From Eledone cirrhosa (Eukaryota), in contig OZ024741.1 in assembly GCA_964016885.1 (NCBI GenBank), positions 320,354,001-320,418,000 of the forward strand: a DNA stretch of 64,000 nt, written 5' to 3'. The notes under the pieces are model-generated. The model did not search any database. It was given only the letters and a program-made list of their open reading frames with translations, and was not told the DNA's origin. Numbering within the stretch: the first letter of the stretch is position 1; each line of letters begins with the position of its first letter. Both the position numbers and the translations under genes were made by a program. Shown in pieces: positions 30,385-56,986 of this stretch.

Positions 30385-31540
30385 TTCTTTGAGTCTCAGT
30401 CATTTATGTTATTTAACTATAAAGTTAGTTCAAATGAATATCAAGCCGCTACCTGCAGCCTCAGATACACAGGGTGTATCGGAGGGTTCTTGCTGTTCCC
30501 AGCAAACATGCCTTTTTAAGTGTCCCCAAAAAAGGGGGCTGGACTAATATTCTTTAACCATCCTTGAAAACTCTTTGAGATATCACCTAGTGCTCCTATG
30601 ACAATCGGGACGACCTTGATCCCATGACAGTCCCAAATTCTTTTTAACTCCCACTTTAAATCCTGGTATCAGTTAATTTTCTTCTTCTCCTTTTCTTACA
30701 CTCTTGTGTCAAAGGGGCAGGTTACATCTACAATCAGGCAGGATCTTTTTTCCTTGTCAAAAACCACCAGGTCAGACCTATTGTGTTCTAATTTCTTGTC
30801 CGTCTGTATCCTGAAATCACATAGCATCTTCACTTGATCGTTTTCTATCACCGACTCTGACTTATGCTCATACCACTTCTCGGAATGTAGTAAATTGTTT
30901 AGTTTGCATAAATGCCAGTGAATCACCTTTCCTATTGTATCATGCCACCAGCCTTTATATTGATTCTGGGCTAGGTGTTGACATACGATGTGAGCCACAG
31001 TCCCCCCCCCCTCTCTCTCTCTCTCTCTCCACAGATCCTACACAGTGAGCTAGCCTACTCCTTGTCAATATGGTGTTTCACTTACTTCGTTCTGAGGGCT
31101 TGTTCCTGTGCAGCCATTAGCAGTCCTTCTGTAGGTTTTTTTAACATCTCTTTTTAACCAGTTCCATGTCTGTGGATCTCTGAATTCCGTTTTCTTAAAG
31201 AAGTTGCTATGACGGGATTCTTCATGAAGGTTGCTTTTCCTCCTTGTTGTTATTTCCTCCTTCGACATCCCCTGGTCTATTGTCTTCTCAGTCAGTACAA
31301 CTTTGAACATTGGCTCCCTACTGTCAGGCACATATTTTTGCAGACTGATTTTCTCCATCTGAACACAGTCCACTATGCTGATAAGTCCTGTTCCACCTTC
31401 AGATATCTTTAAGTAGAGGAGGTGGTTGATGGTAAGCTCTCCTCTTCCCAGCTTATGAGGGACAAGGTTATGAGGGCAGGACGAACAACAAACGGGACAA
31501 ACTATCTCCCTGGAAGATACCTCCCTTGATCTTCACGCCT
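30385..31540 (-). mobile_element. 5'-truncated, internally deleted copy of the same R4/Dong-like family, with 3' end and (TAA)n tail
   Basis: ORFs 30696-30998 and 31065-31373 match 54700-55380; ends CLLGTARTLR, then a short UTR and GATAATAATAATAAT. Confidence 0.88.
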
Positions 31541-32669: not shown

Positions 32670-35015
32670 TTGAACAACAAAACCAACAGCAGCAATAACA
32701 ACAGTAACAGTACTAACAACAAACACAACGAACTGTCCATAAAAGTGAACAACCAAAGATAAAAAAGAAGACAGCAACTGCAACATTTCTGAACAGGAAA
32801 ATTACGAGATTAACCTCCTTCCTTTACAAACTTTAACACCACATTCACAAGAACAGCTAAATAAAACAAACACAGCAATACTAATGCAAACACTGCTACC
32901 ACCAATACGACGATCAGTACCACTGGCACCACCACACCCACCGCAAGAAGAAAAAATATTACAAAAGCAGAAAAACAAATATTACCTTAACATAGACAAC
33001 AACGGCAACACAAACAGCAACAAAAATAAAAACGACAATAACAGCATCATTAATAACAATTATAATTGTTTCTACTTTTGGCACTAGGCCAGCAATAATC
33101 CTAGTGCATTACAGGTACTTTATTTTATCGACCCTGTAAGGATGAAAGGCAAAATTAACCTCGGCGGGATTTGAACTCAGATCATAAAGGGCCGTAACTA
33201 TGCATCAAAGCATGGCGTCCGACTCTCTACCGACACTGCCAATTCACCACCAACAACAATAACATCAGTAACAACAACTACATTAAATTTGCAGCCACAG
33301 CTTCCAAAGCAACTGAACTGTTCGTCATGGATATTATAGAAAAAGAAACATATTTGAACAAAGCAGCCAAACTAATAAAAGTAGAAAAATCAAGTGCTGA
33401 TGTAGCCATCCATTCCGAGGTGATGGCAGACACCCGCCACCAAAACAAACTGTGATCGATAAATTCGTGTCCACAAACACAAAATGGTCAATCATTATAA
33501 GGGTACTGAAAGAGGTAATGCCCAATATTCAACATATTGCGTAGCCCAGAGAGTATGCCAACATTTCTCTTTAAACGTGCTACACTGTCGGAGCGAAAGC
33601 ATGTGCCCTACCCATCGTATTTAGTAAGAAGGTGGTTACGGGTCAAGATCCCACTGGATATTGGCCTGCATCGTCCAAGAAGGGAATAACACTCTTCTGA
33701 AGGTGAAAAACCCAGACGAGGAAACTGATCAGGGATCTGTCTCCAAGTACTACTCCACATCAAACCAGATGACATTCGTAAGATCCCACACTTCATTCCT
33801 CTTCCAAGATTTAAGAGCAGACGTTACCAGCTGTGTCGGAAAACGGGTTACTTGAGCGCTTTCAGCACTCAGCAGACGACAGAGAACAAGAAGTCCACTT
33901 TCCTGCCAACACCCAGACACCAAAACCAATATCCACAACAACAACAATTGTGGCAGCAACAACACCAGCAGCAGCAACTCCAACACCAACAAGACCATCA
34001 TCACCAGCAGGAGCAGAAACAGAAGCACCAACAGCAGAAAACTGCAAAACACCATAAAAGAACATGTAAAAGAACCACCACCATCAAATCAACAACTGCA
34101 AGAAACTTAAAAACAATCTCAGGGGACTCCCAACATATCCCACCCCCTCTGCCCCTCTTGAAAACACACGCACACATCCCCACACGCACACTTGTATCAC
34201 AACATCCATCTGAGTTAAATGACTCAGATACAGAAACCTCCTCTTCTCAGAGTGTGGAAAAGAAGGAATCTCAAAAAGACAAAAAACAAAAACAAAAATG
34301 TGGCTTAAGAAAGACAATAACATAATGCATCATTCCAACATACACCACAGAAAACTAAACGTTGCGCTAGTTATGGAGATGGGAGGGGGGGGGGGCGAAC
34401 TATTGACATTCTTTACATCATGAAGTAAAGACATTGGGACAGAAGGGAAGATTTTCGGCACTTTCGGTACCAACTACCTACAAGAAAATTAGTAAAGGTT
34501 TCCCCAACGACCTGCAACCCTTAATGTAAAAGAAACGAGTAGGCTTTTAAAGAGGATCCGAAAGTAAAACCCCCACCAGATATGGAGGTCGAACCACCCC
34601 ACTTCCAACAGTATCCGGATGGTATGTAGCCCCCCCCCCCACCCACACACCCACCCGACCACACACACACACAATTTTAACCACCCAGCATGACAATTCT
34701 AAGAATAGGATGTAAAAATGTATGTAGCCTGGAGTTGTTTTAGAAGCAAGGCCATTTGCTTAATGACCTCAGGCTATTAGCTATAGCCGTAGCCCCATTT
34801 TTTACGACATTGTGATCTACGCATCGATTAGTCGGCCTGGAATGGGCGGCGGGATGGTAATGCTGTTTAGAAAACACCTGGCATTGAGGTACGGACGATT
34901 TTCCTGCACCGTGACAGTGAGTTGGTGGTCCTGATTGTGAGCAATAGCAAAGGCGATGCTCTCTACTTGTGGTCGACTATGCCTTGACTGAGGCAAGACG
35001 GTCAGATTTCTCCAC
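32670..35015 (+). mobile_element. Old decayed Tx1 relative (ORF1 remnant and start of ORF2 APE)
   Basis: From ~34690: MTILRIGCKNVCSL..KQGHLLNDLRLL, IYASISRPGMGGGMVMLFRK, resembling the ORF2 N-terminus; upstream N-rich and P/T-rich ORF1-like tracts. Confidence 0.7.
33060..33251 (-). mobile_element. Nin-domain SINE inserted in the N-coding tract of the decayed Tx1 ORF1
   Basis: Family match. Confidence 0.82.
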
Positions 35016-35930: not shown

Positions 35931-36384
35931 CCATATACACCTCTATTGTGAACAATGCCATGTTAGTTCTCCTGCTAATTAATCCTTGCAGGTCAACGTT
36001 GCACTATATGCAAATGGGCATCACCAGGTGATGTTTAATTTGCTCAATATACAAACGAGCATCTGAAACCGATATTTCATATGAAAAAAAAAGCAAAACA
36101 TATTTTAGCTTAAAGTTGTCTCACTAAAAAATATCACCCACACTGGATAAAGATCTAGAGACACTTGTCTGGCATTCTTATATGACCACTGATATAGCTA
36201 TGACATCATCAGGCTTACAATCTTCATAGCAATGCACTTGTATGCTTATTGTACATGAACATATCATATACGCCTCTATTATAAATTACAGTATGTTAGA
36301 GATATTGCTACTTTAAGCTCATATATATAGGCATCACCCACCCCGACACACACACACATACATATACATACATACATACATACA

Positions 36385-37929
36385 TTGTGGCTGCCAACTC
36401 GTTTTCGAGTACGGCCACTACTTTTTATCCATGTAGGAGAACCCTACCGATGCGCTGAACGAGTGTGACTTTTTAGTCCAGCCAGCGACTTGAAAACTCT
36501 GGTACAAACACTACACTTGTGACAATTATTGACACATAGTGCTGGGCCCATGGTACCATGTGACGACAAGTGCAGAGGGATCTCCAGATATAAAGCAATG
36601 CCTGTGCCGTGAAGCTTTTATAGTGAGCAAAGGCACTGCACAAAGCCAGTCCCACTCTCTTAACTGAAATGATATTTACCAAAAAGAAGAACAAGTCAAC
36701 ATCATTGGATACCATCAGGGTTGGGGGTGTTATATCAGAGTTTTCCTTCTCCTAGAATTCTGCCTTGACAAAGGCTAAGGGGTCATCTCTCCCGGTGATT
36801 TATATATATACATATATACATATATATATATATACATACATACATGGTGGCTGCCAACTCGTTTTCGAATACAGCCACTACTTTATATCCATGTAGGAGA
36901 ACCCCTACCGATGCGCTGAACGAGTGTGGCTTTTTAGTCCAGCCAGCGACTTGAAAACTCTGGGACAAACACTACACTTGTGACAATTATTGACACATAG
37001 TGCTGGGCCCATGGTTCCATGTGACGACAAGTGCAGAGAGATCTCCACATACAAAGCAATGCCTGTGCCGTGAAGCTTTTATAGTGAGCAAAGGCACTGC
37101 ACAAAGCCAGTCCCACTATCTTAACCAAGATGATATTTACCAAAAAGAAGAACAAGTCAACATCATTGGATACCATCAGGGTTGCAGGTGTTATATCAGA
37201 GTTTTCCTTCTCCTAGAATTCTGCCTTGACAAAGGCATATATACATACATACATACATACATACATACATACATACATACATACATACATACATACATAC
37301 ATACATACATACATACATGGTGGCTGCCAACTCGTTTTCGAGTACGGCCACTACTTTATATCCATGTAGGAGAACCCCTACCGATGCACTGAACGAGTGT
37401 GACTTTTTAGTCCAGCCAGCGACTTGAAAACTCTGGTTCAAACATTAGACTTGTGACAATTATTGACACATAGTGCTGGGCCCATGGTACCATGTGACGA
37501 CAAGTGCAGAGAGATCTCCAGATATAAAGCAATGCCTGTGCCGTGAAGCTTTTATAGTGAGCAAAGGAACTGCACAAAGCCAGTCCCACTCTCTTAACCA
37601 AGATGATATTTACCAAAAAGAAGAACAAGTCAACATCATTGGATACCATCAGGGTTGCAGGTGTTTTATCAGGATTTTCCTTCTCCTAGAATTCTGCCTT
37701 GACAAAGGCTAAGGGGTCATCTCTCCTGGTGATTTTGGATGGCCATTGACTCTTAAGAGCCCCTTTGCCTTTTGACAGGTTTTGTTTTTAATCCTGCAGG
37801 ATGTCCAAAGCCACCCACCTCACCAAGAAACCTTGGTGGGTTTGCCAGTTTAGTCGCCAACAACCCGACCATAAGACAGGTTGTACTGGGATACATGTTA
37901 CCAGTAGCACCAACTGGTGACCTGACACT
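36385..37929 (-). mobile_element. Three head-to-tail copies of a bipartite RTE-derived non-autonomous element (36385-36800, 36844-37236, 37317-37929)
   Basis: Last ~200 bp matches the RTE end at 11860-12046; 5' part has RTE-type CTAGGAGAAGGAAAACTCTGA; copies separated and flanked by (CATA)n or TA-rich runs; two are 5'-truncated. Confidence 0.85.
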
Positions 37930-38015: not shown

Positions 38016-38378
38016 GTATATATCTTTCAAAATATCTAATTTTACCGTTATTTGGTGAAATGTATTCTGGTTTTGTGAAGAATACATATGAGGGAAATAT
38101 ATTTGATCGTTATCAGGTATTTTGTTTTAAATCTTTTATTAAATAAGATCCTCAACGAATTATGTAGTCTTACTTTCAGTGTAGATTGTCTCTAGTTCTA
38201 TGTATTGATATGTCTTAGTACATTGATATGTCTTGTACATCTGTGTATGAATATATTTCAATCACTTGCTTATAATGATTAAGGCTCGATTTTGTTATCT
38301 GAATTCTATCTTGTGATGTTTTTAGAGACAAGACATATGTTTGATTTTGTATCATTCATGACACCCTTTACTTTGAAA

Positions 38379-38380
<2 letters not shown>

Positions 38381-38422
<42 letters not shown>
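38381..38422. repeat. (AAT)14 microsatellite at the 3' end of Tx1 copy A
   Basis: Pure AAT run. Confidence 0.95.
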
Positions 38423-38670
38423 TTTTTCTTTATTAACCACAAGGGTTTACATAAAGTAGACATTAAGGACAGTACAGGACAATACAGTACGGTACAAATG
38501 GGCATTTCTGCGTGTAAAAAGCAAAAACAGAGGATGTAACAAAAATAGCAATGAAAAATTCCCCAATAGGGGGGAGACTTCGGAGGGACATTTGTGGAGA
38601 AAGCCCATTAAAAGGCCACAGTGACCCTGACCACCAAGGCAAGTGCCCTCTCCCAGTTTTCCACCTTTAA

Positions 38671-41600
38671 TTTACAGATATATATTCAGAGTAGGCCCAT
38701 TCACTCGGGCCATTCTTGCTTCTCTCACCCATCTTTCAACAAAATGCTGGGAAGAGAGCACTTCCCTCTATACTCTGATTTTCCTTTTCAAATGAAATTT
38801 GAAAAATCAATCAGGGCATCACCGAAGAGGTAAGTGCTCGTCTTCAGCCCTTTCAAACGTGTCCACCATACTATCTCTTTCGCCATGGCCACCAGACAGA
38901 TAAAAACTGCCTGCCCTTCCCGGCTAAAGGAGGAGGGCGGGGCAATCCTCACGATGGACTCAGATGATAGCCGGATCCGTCCTACACGCGACAGCAGGTG
39001 TTCGACATAAACCCACAAGTCAGCAATTTTCGGACACTGGATGAGTGCATGCAGGACGGTTTCGTCACCCTGCGCGCATCTCGGACATGCCCGGCTGAGG
39101 GCACCTCCATGCCTGTAGAGTTTATCCCGAACTGGCAAGGCTCCTCGGTAGCACTGCCAGGCCAGAGATTTCTGGAAGTTGTCCATAGGCCCTGGCTCGA
39201 AAGTTCTTCCGAAGAGATTGGCTAGTTGATTTTCGTCGACGCCTAGAGTTTCCCCAAGTACGTCGTCGCTCTTCCCCTCCACTAATCCTCTATAGAACGC
39301 CGAGGTGGAGTTTCCACCGATCACATTGCCCGATTGGTCGAGGGGTGTGAGCGCCTGAAGACATTCCAGTCTCCAGGCGCTCCCTCTCGGTCTTCGCTTG
39401 ACCCAGGACTGCAGCTCCGTCAAGGAAACGAGCTGGGGAAATACGTGTCTAGCAAACGGCGACCACACCTGATCACCGTCGAGGAAGAGGTGGCGATGTC
39501 GTAGCCTGAGCGCGTGCCTGCACATCATCAGCCACGGCATGCCCAGCCCTCCACGTAGCGGGTGTTGACAACAGATAGACCGCCTGACCATCAGAGCGCG
39601 TCCCTTCCACAAAAAGCGAAAGAGCAAACGCTCCAGTGCAGTCAGGCGAGGCTTAGGACAAGGTACGACGGTCAGGCGGTAGCAGATGACAGACGCGATG
39701 TACGCGTTAGCCACCTCCGCACGATCGTTCAGGGATAGCTTCCTCTCCGCCCATTTCTGGGTGAGAGAAGCCACCCTGCTCGTCACCTCGTCCCAGTTTT
39801 TGTCCGTCTGGAGGTCCGGACCGAACCAGACCCCTAGCAATTTAACCGGTCCGTCCGTCCAGCGTCCGACGACGCTGTTGGACGGCATGGACCTGCCTCT
39901 CCAGGTGCCGAGCTGCAGGCCCACTGACTTTTCCTGGTTGATCATTGCTCCTGTCACCGCTTCGTATTCTCTTAGTGTAGTGCCGATCACCTCGATGTGT
40001 TTGGCGTTCGACACCACTACGGTGACATCGTCGGCATATGCTGACACGGATCTTCCGCATCCTAGTTCGCGCGGGACGCCCCTCAACGTCTCCAGTTTGT
40101 GCAGTAATGGCTCGAGAGTCAATACGTACAAGAGGGACGAGAGGGGACATCCTTGGCGGACCGAGCGCATGATGTTGAACGGTTCCGACAGGTGACCGTT
40201 CACTCTCACCACAGAGCAGATATCGCTGTGCATGGCAGCGATCCAGCCTCTGAAGACGGGCCCAAAGCCAGCCGCCCTCAGGACTGCCGCTAGGTAACGA
40301 TGGTCGACCCTATCGAAAGCTTTCGACTGATCTAAATTGATCAAGGACCCACCCGTGCCAGGTTCCCTAGCTACCCTCTCTACGATGTATCGCATGTGGT
40401 GGAGGTTGTCGTGGATGGATCTGTCGGGAATGGCGCATGTCTGCGCCTCTCCCACCAGACCACCAACGACAAGCGCCAACCTCTTTGCTAGCACCTTGGC
40501 CAAAATCTTGAACTCTGTGTTTAGCAGAGTTATGGGCCGGAAATTATCTATGTTATCCCCCTTGTTCGGATCCTTTCTCAGCAGTGCCACCGCTCCTCGG
40601 CTCACAGAACTGGGAATTCTCCTGTTCTGTTGCCAGTTGCAGTAGACGTCCGCCAAGAGGCCTCCGAACAAGTCTGGCATCTGTATGTAAAGTTCATAGG
40701 GCAGACCATCCAAACCAGGCGATTTACCCCTTGTGCAGCCAATTATTGCCTCCCTTACTTCAGCGGCTGTTATCGGCTTTTCGCAACACTTTGACCCGGC
40801 CCACCGCTGCCCCCGAACAGCTGAGCGAAGTGTCGCTGAAAAGCTTCACATATTTGCGCAGGATCGAGTAGCATGCGCCTGTCGTGGTCCACCAAAGACC
40901 GGATCGTGGCTTTGTTGCCACGACGCGCCTCCGCCACTCTGGCCCATTGAACGGCTTTCGTCCCCTCGTGTCTGAGAGCACGCACCCTTGCTCTGACAAC
41001 GCAGCCTTCGTGCTTTGCATTGAAGAATTGGTCAAGGACCAATTTCGCCGCAAGCACGTCGGTCGCAATGCCTTTGCTAAGCGCCTCGTCTAATTTTCTA
41101 ACTAGTTCTCCCTCTGCTCTATTTTTCTCTATTGCTAAAGCCTTACTAAACCTAATCGATTCTATTCTAATCGCTCTTTTCATAGCAAACCACCACTTGT
41201 TGTTTACGATGGCTCCCGTCAACGCCCGCTTAACTAGTTCGCTAATCCGGTCTTTGTAGGCCTTGCGCGCTGGTAAGGACGCGTTTAGCCTCCAGTAGCC
41301 GGGTCCTCGTCTATGAAGCCTATCTAAGTCAAGCACACAGATCACGAATTTGTGGTCCTTGTAGCTGACTATCTTGAATTGTGGACAGCCTATGCTAGAC
41401 CTATCTATTTCCCTACAAAATACTCTATCTAGATATGATCTGGATGACCCTATGCGATTTGTCCAAGTCCACATTGGCACATTCTGGAAATCCAATCGGT
41501 ACCTGTCAGACAGTTCAAAACGCCTGAGCAGGTTCGTGAGACTCTTGCACCCTCCACCCCTATCCGCTAATCCCACACAGTCCCAGCGTGCATCTAAGAT

Positions 41601-42032
41601 CCCGTTCCAATCGCCCACTGACACTAAAGAGCGGGACGTTCCAAGAAAGGTCTCCAGACGCCGGAAGAAATCAGGCTGCCCTGCTCCTGTCGGGGCATAG
41701 ACGGCCACTAGCCTGAAAGCTTGCCCGTCTCCGCTGGTCACGTCCAGCACCACCAACTTACCCTCTGGGTCCAGGAAGATGGCCCGTATGGCGAGATCCA
41801 AACCTCTCCGAAAAAGCACAGCAACTCCTCCCCCCGATCCAGGACGGCTGGGAGATGAGTACACATCGTAGCCGCCAAAGATCGGTGCGAAGGCCCGTGC
41901 TTCGGAGATTCTGGTCTCGCTGATGGCCACTACATCTATGTTTAGTGACCTGAGGTCGTTGAGCAGGTGACCCTGCTTCCATGACGACCCCAAGCCACGC
42001 GCATTTATGCTGCCTATTCTGAGTGGGGTCAT
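38671..42032 (-). pseudogene. Tx1 ORF2 of copy A, frameshifted
   Basis: ORFs 40770-42095 (APE) and 38788-40713 (RT, YADD, CCHC); ~58 bp deletion near 40790 and 1 bp deletion near 38807 relative to copy B. Confidence 0.92.
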
Positions 42033-42057
42033 GTTTAAAATAGAGTGGGAAGACCAC

Positions 42058-44182
42058 TTACCGTACTTTTCGTATAGGAGGGATGTTTTTTCCATCCTTT
42101 TTCACTTGATCGTCTGGTGAAGGGACCGTTGAATCGTCCCTTCGGCTGGTCGTCGGCTCTTCTATGAGTATGTCCGAATATACTCTTCGGTTGAGTGTCC
42201 CTCCTAGGTCTCTGAAATCACCAACTGCGTTGGGGAATTTCGTTTTAATATTTGTGTATTGTTTCTGTGCTATTTTTAGCAGTCTTATGTTAGTTGGCGT
42301 ATTGATTGGTGCTGGTATTATGTAGTCGTGTTGTGAAATGTCTGTGTGTTCAATTATGAAAGTCATTAGTTTCTTGTTGTGTGTATTTATTGCCGTGCAT
42401 TTGTTTTTCTGGGGGTGGGGTGTGGTTCTTCTATTTTCTTGTCGTTGTTGCTGGGTGTGTGTGTTTTGTTGTTGTGTTTGCGATGTTGGTGCTTGTGGTG
42501 GTGGTGTTGAAGGTGTTGTTGGCGGTGGGGTTGTCGCCGGTGGTGATGGTGGTGCTAGTGTGGGTGGTGATGGTGTTGGTGGTGTTGCTGCTGTGAGTCT
42601 CTTTGCAGTAGCCTTTACCCTTTTTTCATTTCTTTCCTCCCTTTTCAAAGGCGACGATGCGCTGCTTCTGCGTTTGTGCCTTCTTACGACCTTTTGCCAT
42701 CCCTCTAACCTCACACTCCATGTCTGATTCTGTGAGGTCGGGGAGGGGTACCAGCTCCACTCTTTCACTTGTTGTTGTTGGTGATGTTTGCACTGGAGCC
42801 TCTGTTGCAGCTGCATTTGGTATTGCTGTTGTTGTTGTTAATACTTCCACTGCTGCTGCTGTTTTTGATTTCCGTGGCGTGGGTATGGGTGCCACGGACC
42901 TATCGTTCCTGGTTGCCGCTTGTCCTGTTGCTGGTAGCCGTGGAGCCGGTTTCGGAAGGAGGGGGGGGGGTTCTCTTTTCTCAGGGTCTTCTCGTTGCAG
43001 AAGGCCCTGAGGTGAGTTTTCGATCCACAGCGGAAGCATTTTGGGCGTTTTCCCTCAACACTTATGGGCAGTTGAGTGCCGTTATCGAAGTCTATCACAT
43101 GCGGGATAGCTTCGATGCACTCCTGGTTGGTTTGGATTAACATCTCAATGGAGGTGCCGACCCAACATTCTCTTACTTTTTTCTGTACTTGCAGTACAGT
43201 TGTTTTGTCCTCGCTTCCGACGAGGACAGACGCGGCCAGCCAAGAAGGGGCCATCCCGAGGATAACGTGGGTCAGTTTGACCCTCACAATCTTTTGCCCG
43301 CAGTAGGAGGGCACCAACACCATTTCCTCGCTCCTTAGGGTCATTAAGGATTGAGCCTTTGCCTCCTGGGGTGTGGCAAAAAGTACGTCTACGGTGGCAT
43401 ATTTCTTGCCTCGGGTGATGTGCGTTTTCCGCTGCCACACAGACCCCAAGGCTTTTTTGTATTTGAGCCTCTGTGGCTCTTTCAATCCTACGGGATTTTG
43501 TACTTACTGTACGGTACGTGACCGTACAGTGCTGTTGGGTTTCGAAAAATGTTTCCGCTGCCTTGCAGATTGCTCGGTGTCCGGTTTTTGTCACCATCTT
43601 CTTCGCTTCCTCTAATTCCTCATTTGTTATGAGGATGGTTTCCAGGTTCTTTGCGATACCTGCAAACGAGATTGGTTTTTCTTTGTTGCTGTTGTTGTTG
43701 TTGTTGTCGTCAGAACTGCTGTTACTTTTGTTGTTGCTGCAGGTACTACGACTACTGCCGCCGCCGCTGTTGCTGTGGTTGTTGTTGTTGTTGCTGCTGC
43801 TGCTGTTGTTGTTGCTGCTAATGCTGTTGTTGTTTATGCTGCTGGTGATGCTGTTGCGGCTGCTACTGTTGTTTTCCTCGTCACTGTTGCTGCTGTTATT
43901 ACAGCTGCTACTGCTATTATTCCTGACGTCAGACGAATGAAATGGGTTTTCGTATTTCCCACACACCTTTTTCGTCGTTGTCGTCGTCGTCGTGGAGAAA
44001 TCTTGCTCGCTTTGCACGTGATTTTTCTTTTCTGGCGTCGCTTGCGAAAGAGAAGGGAGGGGGAAAGACACATTTAGAGAAGGGAGGGAGAGAGACAATC
44101 TTCTCTCTGCTGTAGTGACGATTGAGGAAGAAGAAGACGGAATGAGTGGCAGTGACCTATGAAAATTCTTTTTCGTAGCCAT
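42058..44182 (-). pseudogene. Tx1 ORF1 of copy A (gag-like nucleic-acid-binding protein), frameshifted
   Basis: Pieces 43145-44215, 42838-43485, 42626-43039 and 42058-42816 join into one protein: S/N-rich tract, globular region, CFRCGSKTHLRAFC (Cx2Cx4Hx4C), P/T-rich tail; several breaks lie at homopolymers. Confidence 0.85.
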
Positions 44183-44397
44183 GTTGTTTTTTTGTTTAAA
44201 ATAAATATTGGGCACAAAACCCCAATAGGCGGTTATTTAACCACGAAGGGCCAAATAACGGGCAGAAAGACCCCTCTCACGAGGAGGAGGGTGTTTTTGT
44301 CTACAAGTTGGTTAAAGTTTTAAACAATTTACAATTGTTATAGCGGTCAAAATTTACAATACCTTACAGAGCCGAGCCTCCGTCAACCATAGCATTC

Positions 44398-44439
<42 letters not shown>
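44398..44439. repeat. (AAT)14 spacer between Tx1 copies A and B
   Basis: Pure AAT run, the only sequence between the two elements. Confidence 0.95.
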
Positions 44440-44441
<2 letters not shown>

Positions 44442-44700
44442 TTTCTTTATTAACCACAAGGGTTTACATAAAGTAGACATTAAGGACAGTGCAGGACAAT
44501 GCAGGACGGTACAAATGGGCATTTCTGCGTGTAAAAAACAAAAACAGAGGATGTAACAAAAATAACAATGAAAATAACAATGAAAAATTCCCCAATAGGG
44601 GGGAGACTTCGGAGGGACATTTGTGGAGAAAGCCCAGTAAAAAGCCACAATGACCCTGACCACCAAGGCAAGTGCCCTCTCCCAGTTTTCCACCTTTAAT

Positions 44701-47700
44701 TTACAGATATATACTCAGAGTAGGCCCATTCACTCGGGCCATTCTTGCTTCTCTCACCCATCTTTCAACAAAATGCTGGGAAGAGAGCACTTCCCTCTCT
44801 ACTCTGATTTTCCTTTTCAAATGAAATTTGAAAAAGTCAATCAGAGCATCACCGAAGAGGTAAGTGCTCGTCTTCAGCCCTTTCAAACGTGTCCACCATA
44901 CTATCTCTTTCGCCATGGCCACCAGACAGATAAAAACTGCCTGCCCTTCCCGGCTAAAGGAGGAGGGCGGGGTAATCCGCACGATGGACTCAGATGATAG
45001 CCGGATCCGTCCTAAACGCGACAGCAGGTGTTCGACATGAACCCACAAGTCAGCAATTTTCGGACACTGGACGAGTGCGTGCAGGACGGTTTCGTCGCCC
45101 TGCGCGCATCTCGGACATGCCCGGCTGACGGCACCTCCATGCCTGTAGAGTTTATCCCGAACTGGCAAGGCTCCTCGGTAGCACTGCCAGGCCAGAGATA
45201 TCTGGAAGTTGTCCATAGGCCCTGGCCCGAAAGTTCTTCCGAAGAGATTGGCTAGTTGATTTTCGTCGACGCCTAGAGTTTCCCCAAGTACGTCGTCGCT
45301 CTTCCCCTCCACTAATCCTCTATAGAACGCCGAGGTGGAGTTTCCACCGATCACATTGCCCGATTGGTCGAGGGGTGTGAGCGCCTGAAGACATTCCAGT
45401 CTCCAGGCGCTCCCTCTCGGTCTTCGCTAGACCCAGGACTGCAGCTCCGTCAAGGAAACGAGCTGGGGAAATACGCGTCTAGCAAACGGCGACCACACCT
45501 GATAACCGTCGAGGAAGAGGGGGAGTTGTCGTAGCCTGAGCGCGTGCCTGCGCATCATCAGCCACGGCATGCCCAGCCCTCTACGTAGCGGGTGTTGATA
45601 ACAGATGGACCGCCTGACCATCGGAGCGCGTCCCTTCCACAAAAAGCGAAAGAGCAAACGCTCCAGCGCAGTCAGGCGAGGCATAGGACAAGGTACGACG
45701 GTCAGGCGGTAGCAGATGACGGACGCGATGTACGCGTTAGCCACCTCCGCTCGACCTTTCAGGGATAGCTTCCTCTCGGCCCATTTCTGGGTGAGAGAAG
45801 CCACCCTGCTCGTCACCTCGTCCCAGTTTTTGTCCGTCTGGAGGTCCGGACCGAACCAGACCCCTAGCAATTTAACCGGTCCGTCCGTCCAGCGTCCGAC
45901 GACGCTGTTGGACGGCATGGACCTGCCTCTCCAGGTGCCGAGCTGCAGGCCCACTGACTTTTCCTGGTTGATCATTGCTCCTGTCACCGCTTCGTATTCT
46001 CTTAGTGTAGTGCCGATCGCCTCGATGTGTTTGGCGTTCGACACCACTACGGTGACATCGTCGGCATATGCTGACACGGATCTTCCGCATCCTAGTTCGC
46101 GCGGGATGCCCCTCAACGTCTCCAGTTTGTGCAGTAATGGCTCGAGAGTCAATACGTACAAGAGGGACGAGAGGGGACATCCTTGGCGGACCGAGCGCAT
46201 GATGTTGAACGGTTCCGACAGGTGAACGTTCACTCTCACCACAGAGCAGATGTCGCTGTGCATGGCAGCGATCCAGCCTCTGAAGACGGGCCCAAAGCCA
46301 GCCGCCCTCAGGACTGCCGCTAGGTAACGATGGTCGACCCTATCGAAAGCTTTCGACTGATCTAAATTGATCAAGGACCCACCCGTGCCAGGTTCCCTAG
46401 CTACCCTCTCTACGATGTATCGCATGAGGTGGAGGTTGTCGTGAATGGATCTGTCGGAAATGGCGCATGTCTGCGCCGCTCCCACCAGACCACCAACGAC
46501 AAGCGCCAACCTCTTTGCTAGCACCTTGGCCAAAATCTTGAACTCTGTGTTTAGCAGAGTTATAGGCCGGAAATTATCTATGTTATCCCCCTTGTTCGGA
46601 TCCTTTCTCAGCAGTGCCACCGCTCCTCGGCTCACAGAACTGGGAATTCTCCCGTTCTGTTGCCAGTTGCAGTAGACGTCCGCCAAGAGGCCTCCGAACA
46701 AGTCTGGCATCTGTACGTAAAGTTCATAGGGCAGACCATCCAAACCAGGCGATTTACCCCTTGTGCAGCCAGTCATTGCCTCCCTTACTTCAGCGGCTGT
46801 TATCGGCTTTTCGCAACACTTCGCCTCAGTGGCCGAGAGCCGCGGCAGTCCGTCGAGGTAGACACTAAAGTCCATCCCTAGACCCGGCCCACCGCTGCCC
46901 CCGAACAGCTGAGCGAAGTGTCGCTGAAAAGCTTCACACATTTGCCCGGGATCGAGTAGCATGCGCCCGTCGTGGTTCACCAAAGACCGGATCGTGGCTT
47001 TGTTGCCACGACGTGCCTCCGCCACTCGGGCCCATTGAACGGCTTTCGTCCCCTCGTGTCTGAGAGCACGCACCCTTGCTCTGACAACGCAGCCTTCGTA
47101 CTTAGTGAAGAATTGGTCAAGGGCCAATTTCGCCGCAAGCACGTCGGTCGCAATGCCTTTGCTAAGCGCCTCGTCTAATTTTCTAACTAGTTCTCCCTCT
47201 GCTCTATTTTTCTCTATTGCTAAAGCCTTACTAAACCTAATGGATTCTATTCTAATCGCTCTTTTCAGAGCAAACCACCACTTGTTGTTGACGGTGGCCC
47301 CCGTCAACGCCCGCTTAACTAGTTCGCTAATCCGGTCTCTGTAGGCCTTGCGCGCTGGTAAGGACGCGTTTAGCTTCCAGTAGCCGGGTCCTCGTCTATG
47401 AAGCCTATCTAAGTCAAGCACACAGATCACGAATTTGTGGTCCGTGTAGCTGACCATCTTGAATTGTGGACAGCCTATGCTAGACCTATCTATTTCCCTA
47501 CAAAATACTCTATCTAGATATGATCTGGATGACCCTATGCGATTTGTCCAAGTCCACATTGGCACATTCTGGAAATCCAATCGGTACCTGTCAGACAGTT
47601 CAAAACGCCTGAGCAGGTTCGTGAGGCTCTTGCACCCTCCACCCCTATCCGCTAATCCCACACAGTCCCAGCGTGCATCTAAGATCCCGTTCCAGTCGCC

Positions 47701-48117
47701 CACTAACACTAAATAGCGGGACGTTCCAAGAAAGGTCTCCAGACGCCGGAAGAAATCAGGCCGCCCTGCTCCTGTCGGGGCATAGACGGCCACTAGCCTG
47801 AAAGCTTGCCCGTCTCCGCTGGTCACGTCCAGCACCACCAGCTTACCCTCTGGGTCCAGGAAGATGGCCCGTATGGCGAGATCCAAACCTCTCCGAAAAA
47901 GCACAGCAACTCCTCCCCCCGATCCAGGACGGCTGGGAGATGCGTACACATCGTAGCCGCCAAAGATCGGTGCGAAGGCCCGTGCTTCGGAGATTCTGGT
48001 CTCGCTGATGGCCACTACATCTATGTTTAGTGACCTGAGGTCGTTGAGCAGGTGACCCTGCTTCCATGACGACCCCAAGCCACGCGCATTTATGCTGCCT
48101 ATTCTGAGTGAGGTCAT
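44701..48117 (-). pseudogene. Tx1 ORF2 of copy B: APE endonuclease, reverse transcriptase and C-terminal CCHC (~1138 codons), broken by one in-frame TAG
   Basis: APE motifs IGSINARGL, ISET, VYAP, GDWN, YLDR, TDH; GPGYWKLN; RT motifs KSPGLDG, FRPITLLN, LDQSKAFDRV, RQGCPLS, YADD; CPRC..ETVLHALVQC. ORFs 45427-48117 and 44701-45354 are in frame across a TAG at 45427-45429 that is AAG in copy A. Confidence 0.93.
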
Positions 48118-48152
48118 GTTTAAAATAGAGTGGAAAAGATGGGAAAGACCAC

Positions 48153-50226
48153 TTACCGTACTTTTCGTAGAGGAGGGATGGTTTTTACATCCCTTTTCAC
48201 TTGATCGTCTGGTGAAGGGACCGTTGAATCGTCCCTTCGGCTGGTCGTCGGCTCTTCTAAGAGAATTTCTGAATATACTCTTCGGTTGATAGATCCTCCT
48301 AGGTCCCTGAAATCACCAACTGCGTTGGGGAATTTCGTTTTAATGTTTGTGTATTGTTTCTGTGCTATTTTTAGCAGTCTTATGTTAGTTGGCGTTTTGA
48401 TTGGTGCTGGTATTATGTAGTCCTGTTGTGAAATGTCTGTGTGTTCAATTATGTAAGTCATTAGTTTCTTGTTGTGTGTATTTATTGCCGTGCATTTGTT
48501 TTTCTGGGGGTGGGGTGTGGTTCTTCTATTTTCTTGTCGTTGTTGCTGGGTGTGTCTGTTTTGTTGTTGTGTTTGCGATGTTGGTGCTTGTGGTGGTGGT
48601 GTTGAAGGTGTTGTTGGCGGTGGGGTTGTCACCGGTGGTGATGGTGGTGCTAGTGTGGGTGGTGATGGTGTTGGTGGTGTTGCTGCTGTGGGTCTCTTTG
48701 CAGTAGACTTTACCCTTTTCTCATTTCTTTCCTCCCTTTTCAAAGGCGACGATGCGCTGCTTCTGCGTTTGTGCCTTCTTACGACCTTTTGCCATCCCTC
48801 TCCCACCTCACACTCCATGTCTGATACTGTGAGGTCGGGGAGGGGTACCAGCTCCACTCTTTCAATTGTTGTTGTTGGCGATGTTTGCACTGGAGTCTCT
48901 GTTGCAGCTGCATTTGGTATTGCTGTTGTTGTTGTTAATATTTCCACTGCTGCTGTTGTTTTTGATTTCCGTGGCGTGGGTATGGGTGCCACGGACCTAT
49001 CGTTCCTGGTTGCCGCTTGTCCTGTTGCTGGTAGCCGTGGAGCCGGTTTTGGAAGGAGGGGGGTTTTCTCCTTTCTCAGGGTCTTCTCGTTGCAGAAGGC
49101 CCTGAGGTGAGTCTTCGATCCACAGCGAAAGCATTTCGGGCGTTTGCCCTCAACACTTATGGGAAGTTGAGTGCCGTTATCGAAGTCTATCACATCCGGG
49201 ATAGCTTCGATGCACTCCTGGTTGGTTTGGATTAGCATCTCAATGGAGGTGCCGACCCAATCTTCTATTATTTTTTTCTGTACTTGCAGTACAGTTGTTT
49301 TGTCCTCGATTCCGACGAGGACAGACGCGGCCAGCCAAGAAGGGGCCATTCCGGGGGGGGGGGGGGCGTGGGTCAGTTTGACCCTCACAATCTTTTGCCC
49401 GCAGGCACCAACACCATTTCCTCGCTCCTTAGGGTCACTACGGATTGGGCCTTTGCCTCCTGGGGTGTGGCAAAAAGTACGTCTACGGTGGCATATTTTT
49501 TGCCTCGGGTGATGTGCGTTTTCCGCTGCCACACAGACCCCAAGGCTTTTTGTATTTGGGCCTCTGTGGCTCTTTCCACCCTACGGGATTTTGTTCTTAC
49601 TGTACGGTACATGACCGTACAGTGCTGTTGGGTTTAGAAAAATTTTCCGCTGCCTTGCAGATTGCTCGGTGTCCATTCTTTGTCACCATCTTCTTCGCTT
49701 CCTCTAATTCCTCATTTGTTATGAGGATTGTTTCCAAGTTTTTCGCAATACCTGCAAATGAGATTGGATTTTCTTTGCTGCTGTTGTTGTTGTTGTCGTC
49801 AGAGCTGCTGTTACTTTTGTTGTTGCTGCAGGTACTACGACTACTGCCGCCGCCGCTGTTGCTGTGGTTGTTGTTGGTGTTGCTGCTGCTAATGCTGTTG
49901 TTGTTTATGCTGCTGGTGATGCTGTTGCGGCTGCTACTGTTGTTTTCATTGTCACTGTTGCTGTTGTTATTACGGCTGCTACTGCTATTATTCCTGACGT
50001 CAGACGAATGAACTGCTTTTTCGTATATCCCGCACACCTGTTTCGTCGCTGTCGTCGTCGTCGTGGAGAAACCTTGCACGCTTTGCACGAGACTTTTCTT
50101 TTCTTTCGTCGCTTGCGAAAGAGAAGGGAGGGAGAGAGACAATCTTCTCTCTGCTGTAGTGATGATTGAGGAAGAAGAAGACGGAATGCGTGGGAGTGAC
50201 CTATGAAATTTCTTTTTCGTAGCCCT
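48153..50226 (-). pseudogene. Tx1 ORF1 of copy B, frameshifted, start codon mutated (ATG to AGG)
   Basis: Pieces 49597-50142, 49385-49612 and 48153-49532; CFRCGSKTHLRAFC knuckle; homologous to copy A ORF1. Confidence 0.85.
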
Positions 50227-50444
50227 GTTGTTTTTTTTATGTTTAAAATAAATATTGTGTACAAAACCCCAATAAGCAGTTATTTAACCCCGAAGGGCCA
50301 AATAACGGGCAGAAAGACCCCTCTCACGAGGAGGAGGGTGTTTTTGTCTACAAGCTCGTTAAAGTTTTAAACAATTTACAATTGATATAGTGTTCAAAAT
50401 TTACAATACCTTACAGAGCCGAGCCTCCGTCAACCATAGCATTC

Positions 50445-50501
<57 letters not shown>
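50445..50501. repeat. (AAT)19 at the 5' end of Tx1 copy B
   Basis: Pure AAT run abutting the element's first base. Confidence 0.95.
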
Positions 50502-50502
<1 letters not shown>

Positions 50503-51089
50503 GGGAAGAGACGCACATGGTGGATATAGTGTTATGGAATCGCCCCCGTAAGTTTTGGATTTTTACTTATTTAAAACAACTGTGATAGAATAATTCTTAT
50601 TACAAATGGAACATAAGATTACATTTTTTTTACTCTCAACAAGTGACAACGCATCACATTATTGCATAGGGCCCCAATATTTAATATTTAATTTTGGATC
50701 AGAAATGTTATAGTCAAAAAAAGGAAAATGGCTACGTGGACAACAGGCAAATAATTTCACCACCAACACCACCACTGCCACCATAACCACTACCGCACAA
50801 AAAAATCTAGCCAAACCAACTGTTACTTCAACACCATCACTACAGTACTACTATCACATCACCACCACCAGTACTGCATCATTATTGCTACCGCCGCTAT
50901 TCTCTCCCACTAACTCCTGTTAAGACAGAGATATAGAAGTATTCCCACTAAGTGAGGAAGGTATCAAAAGATATAAATTTGATGACCCGGTCAGAGGCAA
51001 CAACAACAACAAAAAAAACGTTATTGCTGCTGTACCTCTAAAACTCCCTCAAAGTGTTTAGTTTAAACGATGTCAAATCTAAACTATAA

Positions 51090-52075
51090 TATAATAATAA
51101 TAATTGTTTCTATTGTTTTTCTTTCTTTGGCGCAGGGCCGGCAATTGCCCAGTGCATTGTTGGTGTTTTGTTTTATCGACTCGGTGGGGATGGAGGACAA
51201 CGTTAACCTCGGCTGATAATAATAATAATTGTTTCTACTTTCGGCACAAGGCCAGCAATTACCCAGTGTATTACTGGTACTCTATTTTATCAACCCCGTA
51301 AGGATGAAAGGCAACGTTAACTTCGGCGGGATTTGAACTCACAATAATAATTGTTTCTACTTTAGGTACAAGGCCAGCAAAATACCCAGTGCATTACTGG
51401 TACTTTATTTTATCGACCCCGTAAGGATGAAAGGCAAACTCAAGCTCGGCGGGATTTGAACTCAGATCGTAAAGGGACGTAACTATGCTGGAAAGCATGG
51501 CGTCCGACCCTCTACCGATACTGCCAATCCACCGCCCTCACAATAATAATTGTTTCTACTTTAGGCACAAGGCCAGCAATTACCAGTGCATTACTGGTAC
51601 TTTATTTTATCGACCCCGTAAGGATGAAAGGCAAAGTCAACCTCGGCGGGATCAATAATAATGATAAGCAACAAGTCGAAACAAATTTCAAAGGTTTTGA
51701 ACGCAACAGCCCTACATCTCATGAAGCTAAAATCAAAAAATCAAAAACCAAAACAGCACCACAGCAACGAAAAGAAAAACAAACCAACAAACAAAAAAAC
51801 TAAGTCACATATTCAAACATTACAGTGCATTGCTGGTGCTTTCTCTTGTCAACTCCGTGGGGATGAAGGGCAAAGTTAACCTCGGCTGATAATAATTGTT
51901 TTTATTTTAGGCGCAAGGCCAGCAATATCAGTATATTACTGGTACTTTATTTTATCGACCCCGTAAAGATGAAAGGCAAAGTTAACCTCGGCGGGATTTG
52001 AACTCAGATCATAAAGGGACGTAACTATATGCTTCAAAGCATGGTGTCCGACTCTCTACCGATACTGCCAGCTGA
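51090..52075 (-). mobile_element. Stack of about 6 co-oriented Nin-domain SINE copies separated by (AAT)n
   Basis: Repeated AATAATTGTTTCTACTTT.GGCACAAGGCCAGCAA..CGACCCCGTAAGGATGAAAGGCAA units; full copy at ~51342-51539. Confidence 0.88.
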
Positions 52076-52272
52076 TAATAATAATAATGATAAGCAACAA
52101 GTCAAAACAAACTTCAAAAGTTTTGAACGCAACAGCCCTATTTCTCATGAAGCTAAAATCAAAAAATCAAAAACCAAAACAGCACAGCCACAACGAAAAA
52201 CGTAAAGAAAAGAAAAACAAACGAACAAACAAACACACAAAAACACTAAGTCAGACATTCAAACATTACATT
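51655..52272. repeat. ~180 bp direct repeat (51655-51823, 52082-52272) within the SINE stack
   Basis: AATGATAAGCAACAAGTC.AAACAAA.TTCAAA..TTTTGAACGCAACAGCCCTA twice. Confidence 0.85.
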
Positions 52273-52331
52273 ACAATGAAAGTTATGTTTATTTTTTAAA
52301 GTTTTTACCTATTTATTTGTTTATTTATTTA

Positions 52332-55300
52332 TGTTCGTCTACAGCGTGATAGTGCCACGCTAAAATTACCGGGGGTGATCAAATCACTGGGGGTGATGAA
52401 ATCACCGGTGGTTATGTAACCATACATTCAACAATCCTCGATATGAATGTTTAAATGTCGAACCTAAACAGTTCGAATAACGGTGAAGTGGAGACTGGAA
52501 TGTCATGTGACAGACTCTCACCCAGCAGGTGCTCCCTGGCCCAGCAGCAGGGACTTGGCTGTCATCCAAATACTGCTGGTGTTGGAGGAAGAAGAAGGAA
52601 AGGGACCAGAACCAACTGGACGAAAGAATTGAATAGAACTGTCATGGAATGTTACCTGAAGAATAACCCCAAGGAAAAAGGCTATAGGAAACGGATGCAT
52701 AACATCTGGAACGAGATTGGTCTATTTAAATTAGATGAACAAAAATTGGCTGGGCAGGCTCAGGTAATAAGAACTAATGGGTGGATAAGCGAGCTGGAAC
52801 TGGAGGAACTCAGCAGAGAGATTAGGTTGGAAATGGAGAGTGGAGTATGCCAGGCAAACGAGCCAGTGGGAAATGTAGGTGAAGACGTTGAGAGAACGGA
52901 AGAAGCATCCGAAGCAGACAATGATCTGAATGCTGAAATAAATAATACCTGGAACAAAGATACGGCCTATGAGGAAATGAATGCTCACGGGCTAGGACAA
53001 GATTGGGTTGATATTGAAAACTTAGTGGTAGATGAAATGAATAATGAGAGTTGGAAACCTATGAACCTAAGATTTGTAGACAGGAAAAAGTTAAAAGAAA
53101 CAAAAGCTAAGGTAAACAAAGTCATCCCATACCTTGAGGCGAGGAACCTTCACCAGTGCAACAATATCCTCAAAGCAACAGCAAATGCGGTGAGGAAATT
53201 ACTTGGCATAAAAGCGAGAGGAAACAACAAACAAGAAAGATCAGAACCTTGGTGGAAGAATGAAGCGAAAGAAAGAGGCAACGACTTGATCCCTGATGGG
53301 AACAAACTAAGACATTCTGGAGAGGAATATGGGAGCAAGATGTTAAACATAATGATTAGGCAGTGTGGATTGAGACAGTACAAAAGGAGATTAGTGAACA
53401 GGCACACCAACAAACTGATTTGAGTATCACAGTTGAAACTCTTAAGGGGCAGGCCAGAAAACTAACCAACTGGAAATCACCAGGCCCAGATGGTGTGCAG
53501 GGGTATTGGATTAAAAATATAACATCCCTCCACTCGAAACTGACAACCATGTTCAATGACTGCTTGATGTCAGGTGAGGTACCAGAGTGGTTGACAAAAG
53601 GTAGCACAGTTCTGGTAATGAAAGACCGAACCAAGGGTAATGATGTTACCAACTATAGACCTATCACATGTCTGTCCGTAATATGGAAACTGTTAACAAG
53701 CATAGTGTCTGAGGAAATCTACCATCACCTCCACATAAACAACTTATTACCGGACGAACAGAAAGGATGTCGAAAGAAGACCCGTGGTACAAAGGACCAG
53801 TTACTTATTGATGAGATGGTAATGAGAAATTGCAAGAGGAGACACACTGGTCTTGCCATGGGATGGATAGACTACAAAAAGGCATTTGATATGGTGCCTC
53901 ATTCCTGGATCACCAAAAGCCTAGAAATCTTCAAGGTGGCAGATAACATCAGACAGTTGTTGAGCAAAAGTATGAAATCCTGGAAAACAGAGTTAACATC
54001 AGCTGGAGTATCCTTGGGAGGCGTGAAGATCAAGAGAGGTATCTTCCAGGGAGATAGTCTGTCCCCTCTGTTGTTTGTCCTTGCTCTGATGCCCCTGATC
54101 ATTATACTGAGAAAAGTGAGAGCAGGATACAAGTTGGGAAAGGGAGAGCTTACCATCAATCACCTCCATTTCATGGACGATCTTAAGCTCTTCGGGAAGA
54201 GTGAGAAGGAGTTGAATGTGCTTGTTGACACTGTCCTCATTTTCAGCAATGATATGTGTATGCAATTTGGTATTAGTAAGTGTGGAGTCCGTGTGATGAA
54301 GTGGGGTAAATTGAGCAGAAGCAACGGAATCCAGGTATCAACAGGTGAGATGATAAAGGAAATTGATACTGAAGAAGGATACAAATATTTAGGTGTTCTG
54401 GAGGCTGATGACATCAAGAACAAAAAAATGAAGGAATTGATAAGATCTGAATACCTTCGGAGAGTAAGGAGCGTATTAAAGTCACATGTGAACAGTAGGA
54501 ATGCCATAAGGGCAGTAAATTCCCGAGCTGTGTCTATTATTAGGTACTGTGCGGGAATTCTGATATGAAATGTTGCTGAACAAAAAGAAATGGATAGGAA
54601 CACTAGGAAGCTATTGACTATCTACAACATGTTCCACAAGAGGAGTGATGTCGATACACTCTACTTAAGGAGATCTGAAGGTGGAAGAGGTCTTATCAGC
54701 ATAGAGGACTGTGTTCAGATGGAGAAAAACAACCTACACAAATACGTGACTGATAGTAGGGAGCCAATGCTCAGAATTGTACTGAAGGAGAGGACAATAG
54801 ACCAGGGGATGGCCAAGGAGGAAATAACAACAAGGAAAAAGAGCAACCTTCATGAAAAATCCCTTCATAGTACCTTCTTTGAGAAAACTGAATTTAGAGA
54901 TCCACAGATATGGAACTGGTTGAAAAGAGGAGACCTTAAAAAGGATACAGAAGGAATGCTAATGGCTGCGAAAGAGCAGGCCCTCAAAACGAAGTGGCTG
55001 AAAAACCATATTTACAAGGAGGAGGCTAGCCCACTGTGTAGGATCTGTGGAGAGAGAGAGGAGACTGTGGCTCACATTGTATCCGAGTGTAAACACCTAG
55101 CCCAGACTCACTATAAAGGCTGGAGACATGATGTGATGGGCAGGGTGACCCACTGGCACCTATGCAAAGTAAACATTTTACCACATTCTGAGAAGTGGTA
55201 TGAGCATAAGCTAGAGTCGGTGATAGAAAATGATCAGGTGAAGGTGCTGTGGGATTTTAGGATACAGACGGACAAGAAACTGGAACACAATAGACCTGAC

Positions 55301-55507
55301 CAGGTGGTTTTGGACAAGGAAAAAAGATCGTGCCTGATTGTGGATGTGGCCTACCCATTCGACACGAGAGTGCAAGAGAAGGAGAGGGAGAAAATTAACC
55401 GATACCAGGACTTAAAGGGGGAGGTAAGAAGGATTTGGAACTGCCATGAAGTCAAAGTCATAGGCGCACTAGGTACTATCTCAAAGAGTTTCCAAGGATG
55501 GTTAAAG
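52332..55507 (+). mobile_element. R4/Dong-like non-LTR retrotransposon with restriction-like endonuclease, near full length, 3' end clipped
   Basis: Single-ORF layout: N-terminal WTKELNRTVMECY..GYRKRMHNIW; RT KSPGPDG, NYRPITCL, WIDYKKAFD, GIFQGDSLSP, FMDD, YKYLG; CRICG..ETVAHIVSEC, RHD, PD..D..K endonuclease. Confidence 0.9.
52455..55507 (+). pseudogene. R4/Dong-like polyprotein (RT, CCHC, PD-(D/E)xK), disrupted
   Basis: ORFs 52455-53423, 53363-54568 and 54590-55555; frameshift near 53300, probable internal deletion after EPWWK, in-frame TGA at 54566-54568. Confidence 0.88.
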
Positions 55508-56986
55508 CATGGCGTCCGATGTATGTTGCACACGTCAACATACATACCTACATAAGCATACATCCTACATACATTTCTATCCACATATAAACACAATGAC
55601 ATACGTAAACACACATGTTCTATGGTGCAACACAAATATACAAATATTTGCATACCTTTTGATGTCTATAGATATAAACGTGCCGACACGCACACATACA
55701 TATACGCACACATGCATTGCACACTGATGGGCACATACATATTTGTACACAAGTATTCCCATACGGCAGCCTAATGGATTCTCCTTGCAGTACGTACAAT
55801 CTGGACACTCACACACACCTTGGTGTTATGACAACACTATACATCATTTTACCCCTTTTATCATTAATGTTTTTGATGTTCTTTTGAGAGAATCGTTTTT
55901 GCAAATTAATGAAAATATCGAATAATGTACACCATTTTTACCAGTATCACAAAAATACTGGTCCATCCATACACACACACACATACACACATATACCCAC
56001 ACACACACATACACACGCGTACACTAACATACAAACTGACATACACACACACACTTCTGCGTATAAGACAAGAGCTGAAAAGTATCTTTCAACATGTTAT
56101 AAAATATCCCCCACACACGTACACACACATTCCTACTGACCGAATTTATTCCCTCTACCACGAACCACTCTACTACACACACACACATATTTGTCTTAAT
56201 AGACACCTGAACTGTTGACCTTTCAACATGACTGCAATTCACACACACATCCCTACTGACCATTATCACAACAATGAACCTCTTTACTACACACACACAC
56301 ACATATTTGTCTTAAAAGTCTTATTTTTCAGTGACTTCTCAATCAGTCGAAAAAGGACACTCTTCGACAAACCTACATTTGGCGCAAAATCAATTTTTAA
56401 CATTCACGACCTCTACCGACCAATCAAAATTGTTTTGACTACAAGAATTTCTGCAACACGAATTGGCGCGCAATTTATAGTACTCATTCACGTGACATTC
56501 AACAACCAACCAAATCTTAATACCTCTGGAGCCACTTTTTTCACATAAAACAGGAAGAATTTCCAAAACTGATCAGATTAGAGCAAACATCACGGCCGCT
56601 CTATCTCAAAATTAGTTTTGAAAAGCATTAGAAATGCGCAACCGGTAAAAACTTAAAACTAAAACTGAATACTAACAAATACGTATTACTAATTTATACT
56701 TATTCCTAATTAAACTATTTTTCACTGGGAAAAATTTGTCACCATTTTCTTTTCCTTTTACTAATATATATAAATATATATATATATAAGTATGTATACG
56801 TACATACATATATGTATACAGACGTACAGTAGTATGTATATATACATGCATGCACATATATATATGTACGTATGGATTCACCAAACATTTATTATAATGC
56901 TCGGTGTGTTTGTAAACAAACATCCCGTATAAAGTCGCAGTGTCTAGCAACCACCGTTGCTCGTTTGTTCAACACTGACAAAGGAA

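Follow-up and report, generated by a model that had tools for sequence, protein, structure and literature searches.

The question raised by this locus is why two full-length long interspersed nuclear elements (LINEs), termed A and B here, lie head to tail between runs of AAT in the genome of Eledone cirrhosa. The stretch analysed, referred to below as the window, comprises 64,000 nucleotides of the forward strand of contig OZ024741.1 (positions 320,354,001 to 320,418,000; assembly GCA_964016885.1). Our reading, to which we assign a probability of roughly 0.7, is that A and B are independent insertions of an abundant ATT-repeat-bound LINE encoding an apurinic-type endonuclease (APE) and a reverse transcriptase (RT), and that nicking of (AAT)n and anchoring by an AUU leader on the RNA are both likely. 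The LINE is present in thousands of copies genome-wide, nearly all of which stand beside ATT repeats. The layout of the locus, including the two open reading frames (ORF1 and ORF2) of each copy, is as follows.

38381..38422, plus strand: (AAT)14, which forms the 3' flank of element A when read as (ATT)14.
38423..44397, minus strand: element A, a full-length LINE of 5975 bp, broken.
42032-38675, minus strand: ORF2 of A, frameshifted by two losses, one of 58 bp near 40791 and one of 1 bp near 38807.
About 44182-42061, minus strand: ORF1 of A, in more than one frame.
44398..44439, plus strand: (AAT)14 that separates B (3' end) from A (5' end).
44440..50444, minus strand: element B, a full-length LINE of 6005 bp without a poly(A) tail.
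44446..44451, minus strand: AATAAA hexamer, identified from the sequence, 6 nt short of the 3' end of B and followed by the ATT run.
44704..48117, minus strand: ORF2 of B, with APE endonuclease, RT and C-terminal CCHC (Pfam PF03372, PF00078, PF13966) and an in-frame stop at 45427-45429.
48156..50223, minus strand: ORF1 of B, ~700 codons over three frames, with a CCHC knuckle and a predicted RNA-binding core.
50445..50501, plus strand: (AAT)19, which read as (ATT)19 is the 5' flank of B.
50502..50760, minus strand: dispersed repeat directly upstream of B.

In the sense direction the window therefore reads (ATT)19-B-(ATT)14-A-(ATT)14, and each copy starts with an identical base, G, immediately after an ATT run. 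The 3' end of the element, AATAAAGAAANC, carries no poly(A) and is directly followed by ATT. A preliminary description of the locus had placed two full-length LINEs in the same orientation between (AAT)14, (AAT)14 and (AAT)19, and its coordinates and shared first base agree with ours; that both copies are broken was not part of it.

Aligned end to end, A and B have 5724 matches, 189 mismatches and 15 indels (96.8% identity). In an alignment of 54 full-length copies, B ranks 11th of 53 in nearness to A, and A ranks 35th of 53 in nearness to B. True local duplicates are found in the family (L329/L330 and L334/L335), and these have flanks in common and match each other at 99.9-100% over 1.4 kb. 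Their existence gives some room to the idea that the A-B pair is one insertion copied by local tandem duplication, or an artefact of assembly, yet with so many site differences and indels between the two copies, each of which has nearer relatives elsewhere in the genome, this idea is barely credible. Because their divergence and their closer relatives set them apart from the true duplicates, A and B are independent insertions, and the earlier preference for two insertions over an assembly duplicate holds.

The tandem arrangement is typical of the family rather than special to this locus, because 16 of 54 full-length copies come directly after another Tx1-like 3' end. The upstream neighbour of the remaining copies is an R4-like LINE on the opposite strand (13 copies), the tail of a short interspersed nuclear element (SINE; 6 copies) or another match (3 copies), with no assigned match for the last 16. 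Arrays of 5, 3 and 3 LINE 3' ends at ~6-7 kb spacing were observed at G000:C1:55423683-55449647, 56169667-56181792 and 57085854-57098009.

The association with ATT extends to the whole genome. The exact 5' 24-mer of the element occurs 785 times and is directly preceded by (ATT)3 in 745 cases, and the 3' 26-mer occurs 7386 times and is directly followed by (ATT)3 in 5778. Since exact (ATT)3 follows 0.05% of window positions, chance is excluded as the source of the association. Among the first 100 matches to the 5' end there are four exceptions to (ATT)3, all of them interrupted ATT runs. In a sample of 90 distinct 3' ends around the first 100 3'-end matches, which were not picked by flank, 87 copies were resolved and 3 were not; 54 of the 87 are full length (about 62%, a high share for a LINE) and 33 are truncated; the latter include a few local duplicates and one copy that is full length but internally deleted. 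ATTATT stands at the 5' junction of all 54 full-length copies. A genome-wide preference for ATT/AAT repeats is thus very probably real. It had been proposed for an APE-type family in the preliminary description, and the tabulated 5' flanks are indeed repetitive rather than mostly non-repetitive.

A sister variant, which has its own 5' untranslated region (5'UTR) and ORF1 and shares ORF2 and the 3' end (95% identical), follows the same pattern, with its heads placed after (ATT)3 in 1366 of 1460 cases. Such sister variants (L115, L126 and others) switch just before ORF2, and in their 5'UTR/ORF1 modules the best blocks are 45-65% identical at the protein level. All LINE heads seen start with G, and further G-starting heads recur after ATT runs.

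Whether the repeat was there before the LINE is best judged from truncated copies, which cannot bring a 5' repeat with them. ATTATT is found at the 5' junction of 14 of the 33 truncated copies compared with 1.3% of random positions (binomial p 3e-18), and in 11 of the 33 when three copies lying behind another LINE end are dropped. The target-site duplications of truncated copies measure 7-19 bp and contain ATT. Credible duplications of at least 7 bp were obtained for 6 of 14 short copies with a non-repeat 3' flank, two further script matches having been dropped as they lay inside the element. As the pattern by which these copies were picked does not demand ATT within the duplicated segment, this ATT must be target DNA. 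The truncated copies thus support targeting of ATT repeats by the LINE.

A different explanation would be that any AT-rich site with ATT can be cut, and that the element itself makes both runs as its head and tail. Four truncated copies (L176, L253, L260 and L272) sit in unique AT-rich sequence containing just one ATT, in line with this explanation, and the copy L206, described below, indicates that a 5' run can come from the element. It is nevertheless highly unlikely, as no leader is possible in the truncated copies that have ATTATT upstream, and as the upstream neighbours are often repeats with ATT ends of their own. Some features of the truncated copies do weigh against targeting: the 5' junction is free of ATTATT in 19 of the 33, in several it runs straight into other LINE sequence and shows no repeat or duplication, and the sets of off-repeat loci were selected by a pattern that requires ATT. 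Four copies (L132, L138, L283 and L218) are fused in this way to reversed LINE sequence that by eye looks R4-type, and such joints may reflect deletions that arose as the 5' end was joined.

The 5' ends of full-length copies differ from those of truncated ones. From 80 fetched loci with an unusual 3' flank, 48 were retained, each with its 5' end resolved and lacking (ATT)3 within 30 nt (29 full length, 19 truncated). A 5' ATT run is present in all 29 full-length copies, as at least three pure ATT units in 26 and in an interrupted or mis-called form in 3, and none of the 29 has an exact duplication. Among the truncated copies a 5' run is seen in 2 of 19 and a duplication in 5 of 19 (Fisher p 4e-8 for the run and 0.007 for the duplication). 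At two sites the state before insertion could be reconstructed. In L206 the LINE splits the 15-bp duplication of an older insert, judged by eye to be RTE-like from its GAA tail; the site held one ATT before, and (ATT)10 now stands upstream (best control 11). In L213 the LINE lies inside a SINE, where an imperfect duplication of ~18 bp with 2 mismatches is followed by (ATT)12. A full-length copy can thus carry a 5' ATT run at a site that held no more than one ATT before insertion, and for this reason pure repeat at the 5' junction of a full-length copy, which the preliminary description took as proof of targeting, is insufficient as such, although the conclusion drawn from it stands. From this comparison of junctions the full-length RNA probably carries an AUU-repeat leader.

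The model put forward in that description, in which all ATT is pre-existing microsatellite, the duplication is ordinary and the RNA has no leader, accounts for a part of these data. ATT upstream of truncated copies is far over background, every one of the first 30 full-length loci has at least five ATT units upstream, as a duplication of 15-18 bp would yield, and L092 has an identical interrupted run on either side. At this locus, the dispersed repeat upstream of B has an ATT-rich run at its end in 10 of the 10 other loci listed. The model does not, however, predict full-length copies with a 5' run and no exact duplication beside a non-ATT 3' flank, nor the gain of 10-12 units at L206 and L213. 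It is also at odds with the 3' junctions followed by (CTT)n, where ATT-(CTT)n is found 32 times genome-wide and ATTATT-(CTT)n 3 times, and where a far-side duplication of the LINE end is possible in 1 of 20 loci and doubtful there. An origin from pre-existing repeat alone is consequently rather unlikely. For B, the terminal ATT-rich run of the dispersed repeat was, as judged from its other copies, likely the pre-existing target, and (ATT)19 is likely part target and part leader.

In the ATT-(CTT)n junctions (L301-L320, from the 32 sites genome-wide) a single ATT separates the LINE 3' end from (CTT)n, which is often a reversed RTE-like tail, and the order of events is resolved for L206 alone. 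Their origin from later RTE-like inserts has little support, and is possible for long inserts. Insertion into (TTC)n or (TC)n of the Koshi or Kibi type is not indicated, given 32 such 3' ends against 5778 with (ATT)3, and no CTT repeats were found upstream of the full-length CTT-flanked copies fetched.

Several observations count against a leader. An empty site could be reconstructed in just 1 of 14 CTT-flanked loci (L206). L213 is a weaker case than L206: the left half of its SINE is more diverged from the window copies than the right (74-89% compared with 93-98%), and two SINE copies are possible there. Later insertions that broke into an original ATT run could account for many of the non-ATT 3' flanks. 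Copying of a leader would pass on any interruption in the 5' run, and a comparison of such shared interruptions gave no clear signal; an interruption at position -7 was found in 15 copies, 8 of them with G (6 after collapsing duplicates), and L092 and L210 are not sisters. Finally, one full-length copy, L321, has merely (ATT)2 upstream.

The position and phase of insertion, the duplications and the contrast between full-length and truncated junctions are read directly from the copies, and it is from these that we infer the nicks and the leader. In the proposed mechanism the APE would nick the bottom (AAT)n strand at AAT/AAT to prime reverse transcription, the 3' end of the RNA pairing with the nicked primer, and a second nick would be made ~16 nt away. 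Transcripts would take in flanking repeats, perhaps by read-through or by starting within the repeat, giving full-length RNA a short AUU leader. A full-length cDNA would then end in (AAT)n copied from the leader and could anneal to the upstream (ATT)n, which would give uniform G-start junctions, a hidden duplication and many full-length copies. At sites without repeat the leader would be written into the site, as may have happened at L206 and L213. Each insertion would keep or add targets, so that head-to-tail arrays such as B-A could accumulate, interspersed with R4/Dong-like LINEs and the tails of SINEs. An unbroken ORF2 of the family has APE and RT motifs of catalytic type, the role of which is presumably that of their counterparts in L1.

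A scan of 38300-52500 against Rfam gave no RNA family at its curated score and no ribozyme, the four weak matches all being far below their curated scores. An HDV-like ribozyme at the CUCCUCGU loop in the 5'UTR was considered and rejected, as no P1 or P1.1 partner is visible by eye and other 5' variants are without the loop.

With regard to class, ORF2 comprises an N-terminal APE, an RT and a C-terminal CCHC, all above the curated Pfam cut-offs, and its best match in the PDB is human L1 ORF2p (E 1e-49, compared with 1e-19 for R2), in agreement with the APE-type LINE first proposed. ORF1 contains one CCHC motif, and ZCCHC3-type and CCHC clusters are among its Atlas look-alikes (0.88-0.93); a Pfam scan of ORF1 gave no family at its cut-off. 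Both ORFs are intact long frames in 6 of 54 aligned full-length copies. The domain order, the 5' truncation (33 of 87 resolved copies) and the duplications of 7-19 bp are those of an APE LINE of the L1 group. Members of the Tx1 clade have no poly(A) tail and carry AATAAA directly before the target, and their ORF1 combines an RNA-binding core with a CCHC knuckle, unlike the vertebrate L1 type. The octopod LINE has a target sequence preference and no poly(A), with AATAAA near the 3' junction and then the target, and on these sequence characters it probably belongs to this clade. The nearest named protein is from Argonauta hians (73% identity over 41% of the query), in keeping with an octopod host, followed by relatives in Acanthosepion (45%), hagfish (42%) and sea cucumber (41%), and no named Tx1 reference protein is among the matches. 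A metagenome scan found no relative. Contigs of other organisms contain sequence related to its 5' end, with one loose end bearing TAA repeats; these were not used as evidence.

Human L1 nicks at a T/A step, and the octopod LINE resembles human L1 ORF2p (PDB) in domain order and in the nick proposed at such a step; it differs from human L1 by its lack of a poly(A) tail, its CCHC-type ORF1 and its strong repeat preference. Mutsu and Dewa are among the target-specific families of the Tx1 clade. Further Tx1 targets in the available part of PMC4494074, which ascribes a target sequence preference to many members, are Tx1D, U2, (TC)n, (TTC)n, (TTCC)n, (TTTC)n and several transposons. Kibi, targeting (TC)n, Koshi, targeting (TTC)n, and the crocodilian (TTCC)n/(TTTC)n families described there are likewise two-ORF APE-RT LINEs of the L1 group that insert into a microsatellite with fixed phase and orientation. 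Their repeats are pyrimidine-only, whereas the octopod LINE targets (ATT)n, and a 5' repeat leader as suggested here is not described for them in that part of the paper.

The repeat itself is that of Dong, for which alone a TAA target is given in the accessible text of PMC3812793; the same text lists Dong among APE-type elements, at odds with its placement in R4, a clade with a restriction-like endonuclease (RLE) according to the portion seen of PMC4640811. The octopod LINE uses the opposite strand of this microsatellite and, in contrast to R4, has an APE and is nearer to L1 than to R2. The R4/Dong-like LINEs that adjoin it lie in opposite orientation. As for the leader, the available section of PMC3774820 describes R2 RNA that retains 9-36 nt of upstream 28S sequence, uniform 5' junctions formed by annealing of the cDNA, and extra target copies when annealing fails. 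The octopod LINE is alike in its uniform 5' junctions, its leader being deduced from DNA alone; it differs from R2, which inserts into rDNA, encodes an RLE and has an HDV-like ribozyme. An analogue of the octopod LINE arrays is described in plants, where DNA transposons that target microsatellites form non-nested arrays (PMC5907723, in the part available).

For Octopus vulgaris, the parts of PMC13282606 at hand report 13 recently active L1-Tx1 families with 421 insertions, 80 families in the supplement, and also Dong-R4. These are probably of the same class, and the octopod LINE may be among them as a consensus; the word 'target' is absent from the main text and one supplement file, which give no insertion specificity. 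An ATT-specific Tx1 is absent from the accessible parts of PMC8967140, PMC10294476, PMC11203168, PMC5753468, PMC3747384 and PMC4640811, and no ATT-targeting Tx1 family was found in the literature searched, Repbase and Dfam being outside the search. This is not a new kind of element, since there is precedent both for Tx1 families specific to a microsatellite and for target leaders.

The surroundings of the locus contain other repeats, several with ATT or TAA ends. A broken R4/Dong-like LINE lies 2 kb from B at 52455-55555 on the plus strand (RT nearer to R2, E 2e-29, than to L1, 2e-13), and a relative with TAA repeats at its end is found at ~30390-31530 on the minus strand. The abundant SINE-like repeat of ~230 bp, the tail of which precedes 6 of 54 full-length LINE copies, has ATT repeats at its end and occurs at 51125-51540, 30030-30380 and 33040-33250. 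An older degenerate relative lies at ~28860-29995 on the plus strand, where an ORF1 piece (40% identical) is followed by part of the 3' end in inverted orientation, next to (ATT)7 at 29996; at ~1530-2145 on the minus strand there are pieces of an ORF2 that is more distantly related (52-61% identical in protein). Three copies of a 473-bp unit at 36348-37735, split by (CATA)n runs, and a further copy near 28190-28470 possibly represent a second microsatellite-associated repeat. Elsewhere, at G000:C27:4787000-6272000, arrays of a ~96 bp unit contain the LINE 3' end and may be a LINE-derived satellite.

Taken further, and tentatively, it is possible that the LINE carries its own target, with AUU repeats at both ends of its RNA and R2-style 5' joining, and thereby sows ATT microsatellites; that it has converged on the repeat of the RLE-bearing Dong, on the opposite strand, with two unrelated nucleases giving rise to mixed LINE arrays at ATT/TAA runs throughout an octopod genome; and that several 5'UTR/ORF1 modules share one ORF2. 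If true, (ATT/AAT)n would be added to the targets of Tx1-type LINEs, with an APE enzyme converging on the target of Dong. The thousands of young copies make both the reading of a microsatellite by an APE and the joining of LINE 5' ends open to test. Full-length insertions would bring extra ATT repeats, and so new landing sites, and part of the ATT microsatellite load and of the transposable element clusters in octopod genomes would be explained.

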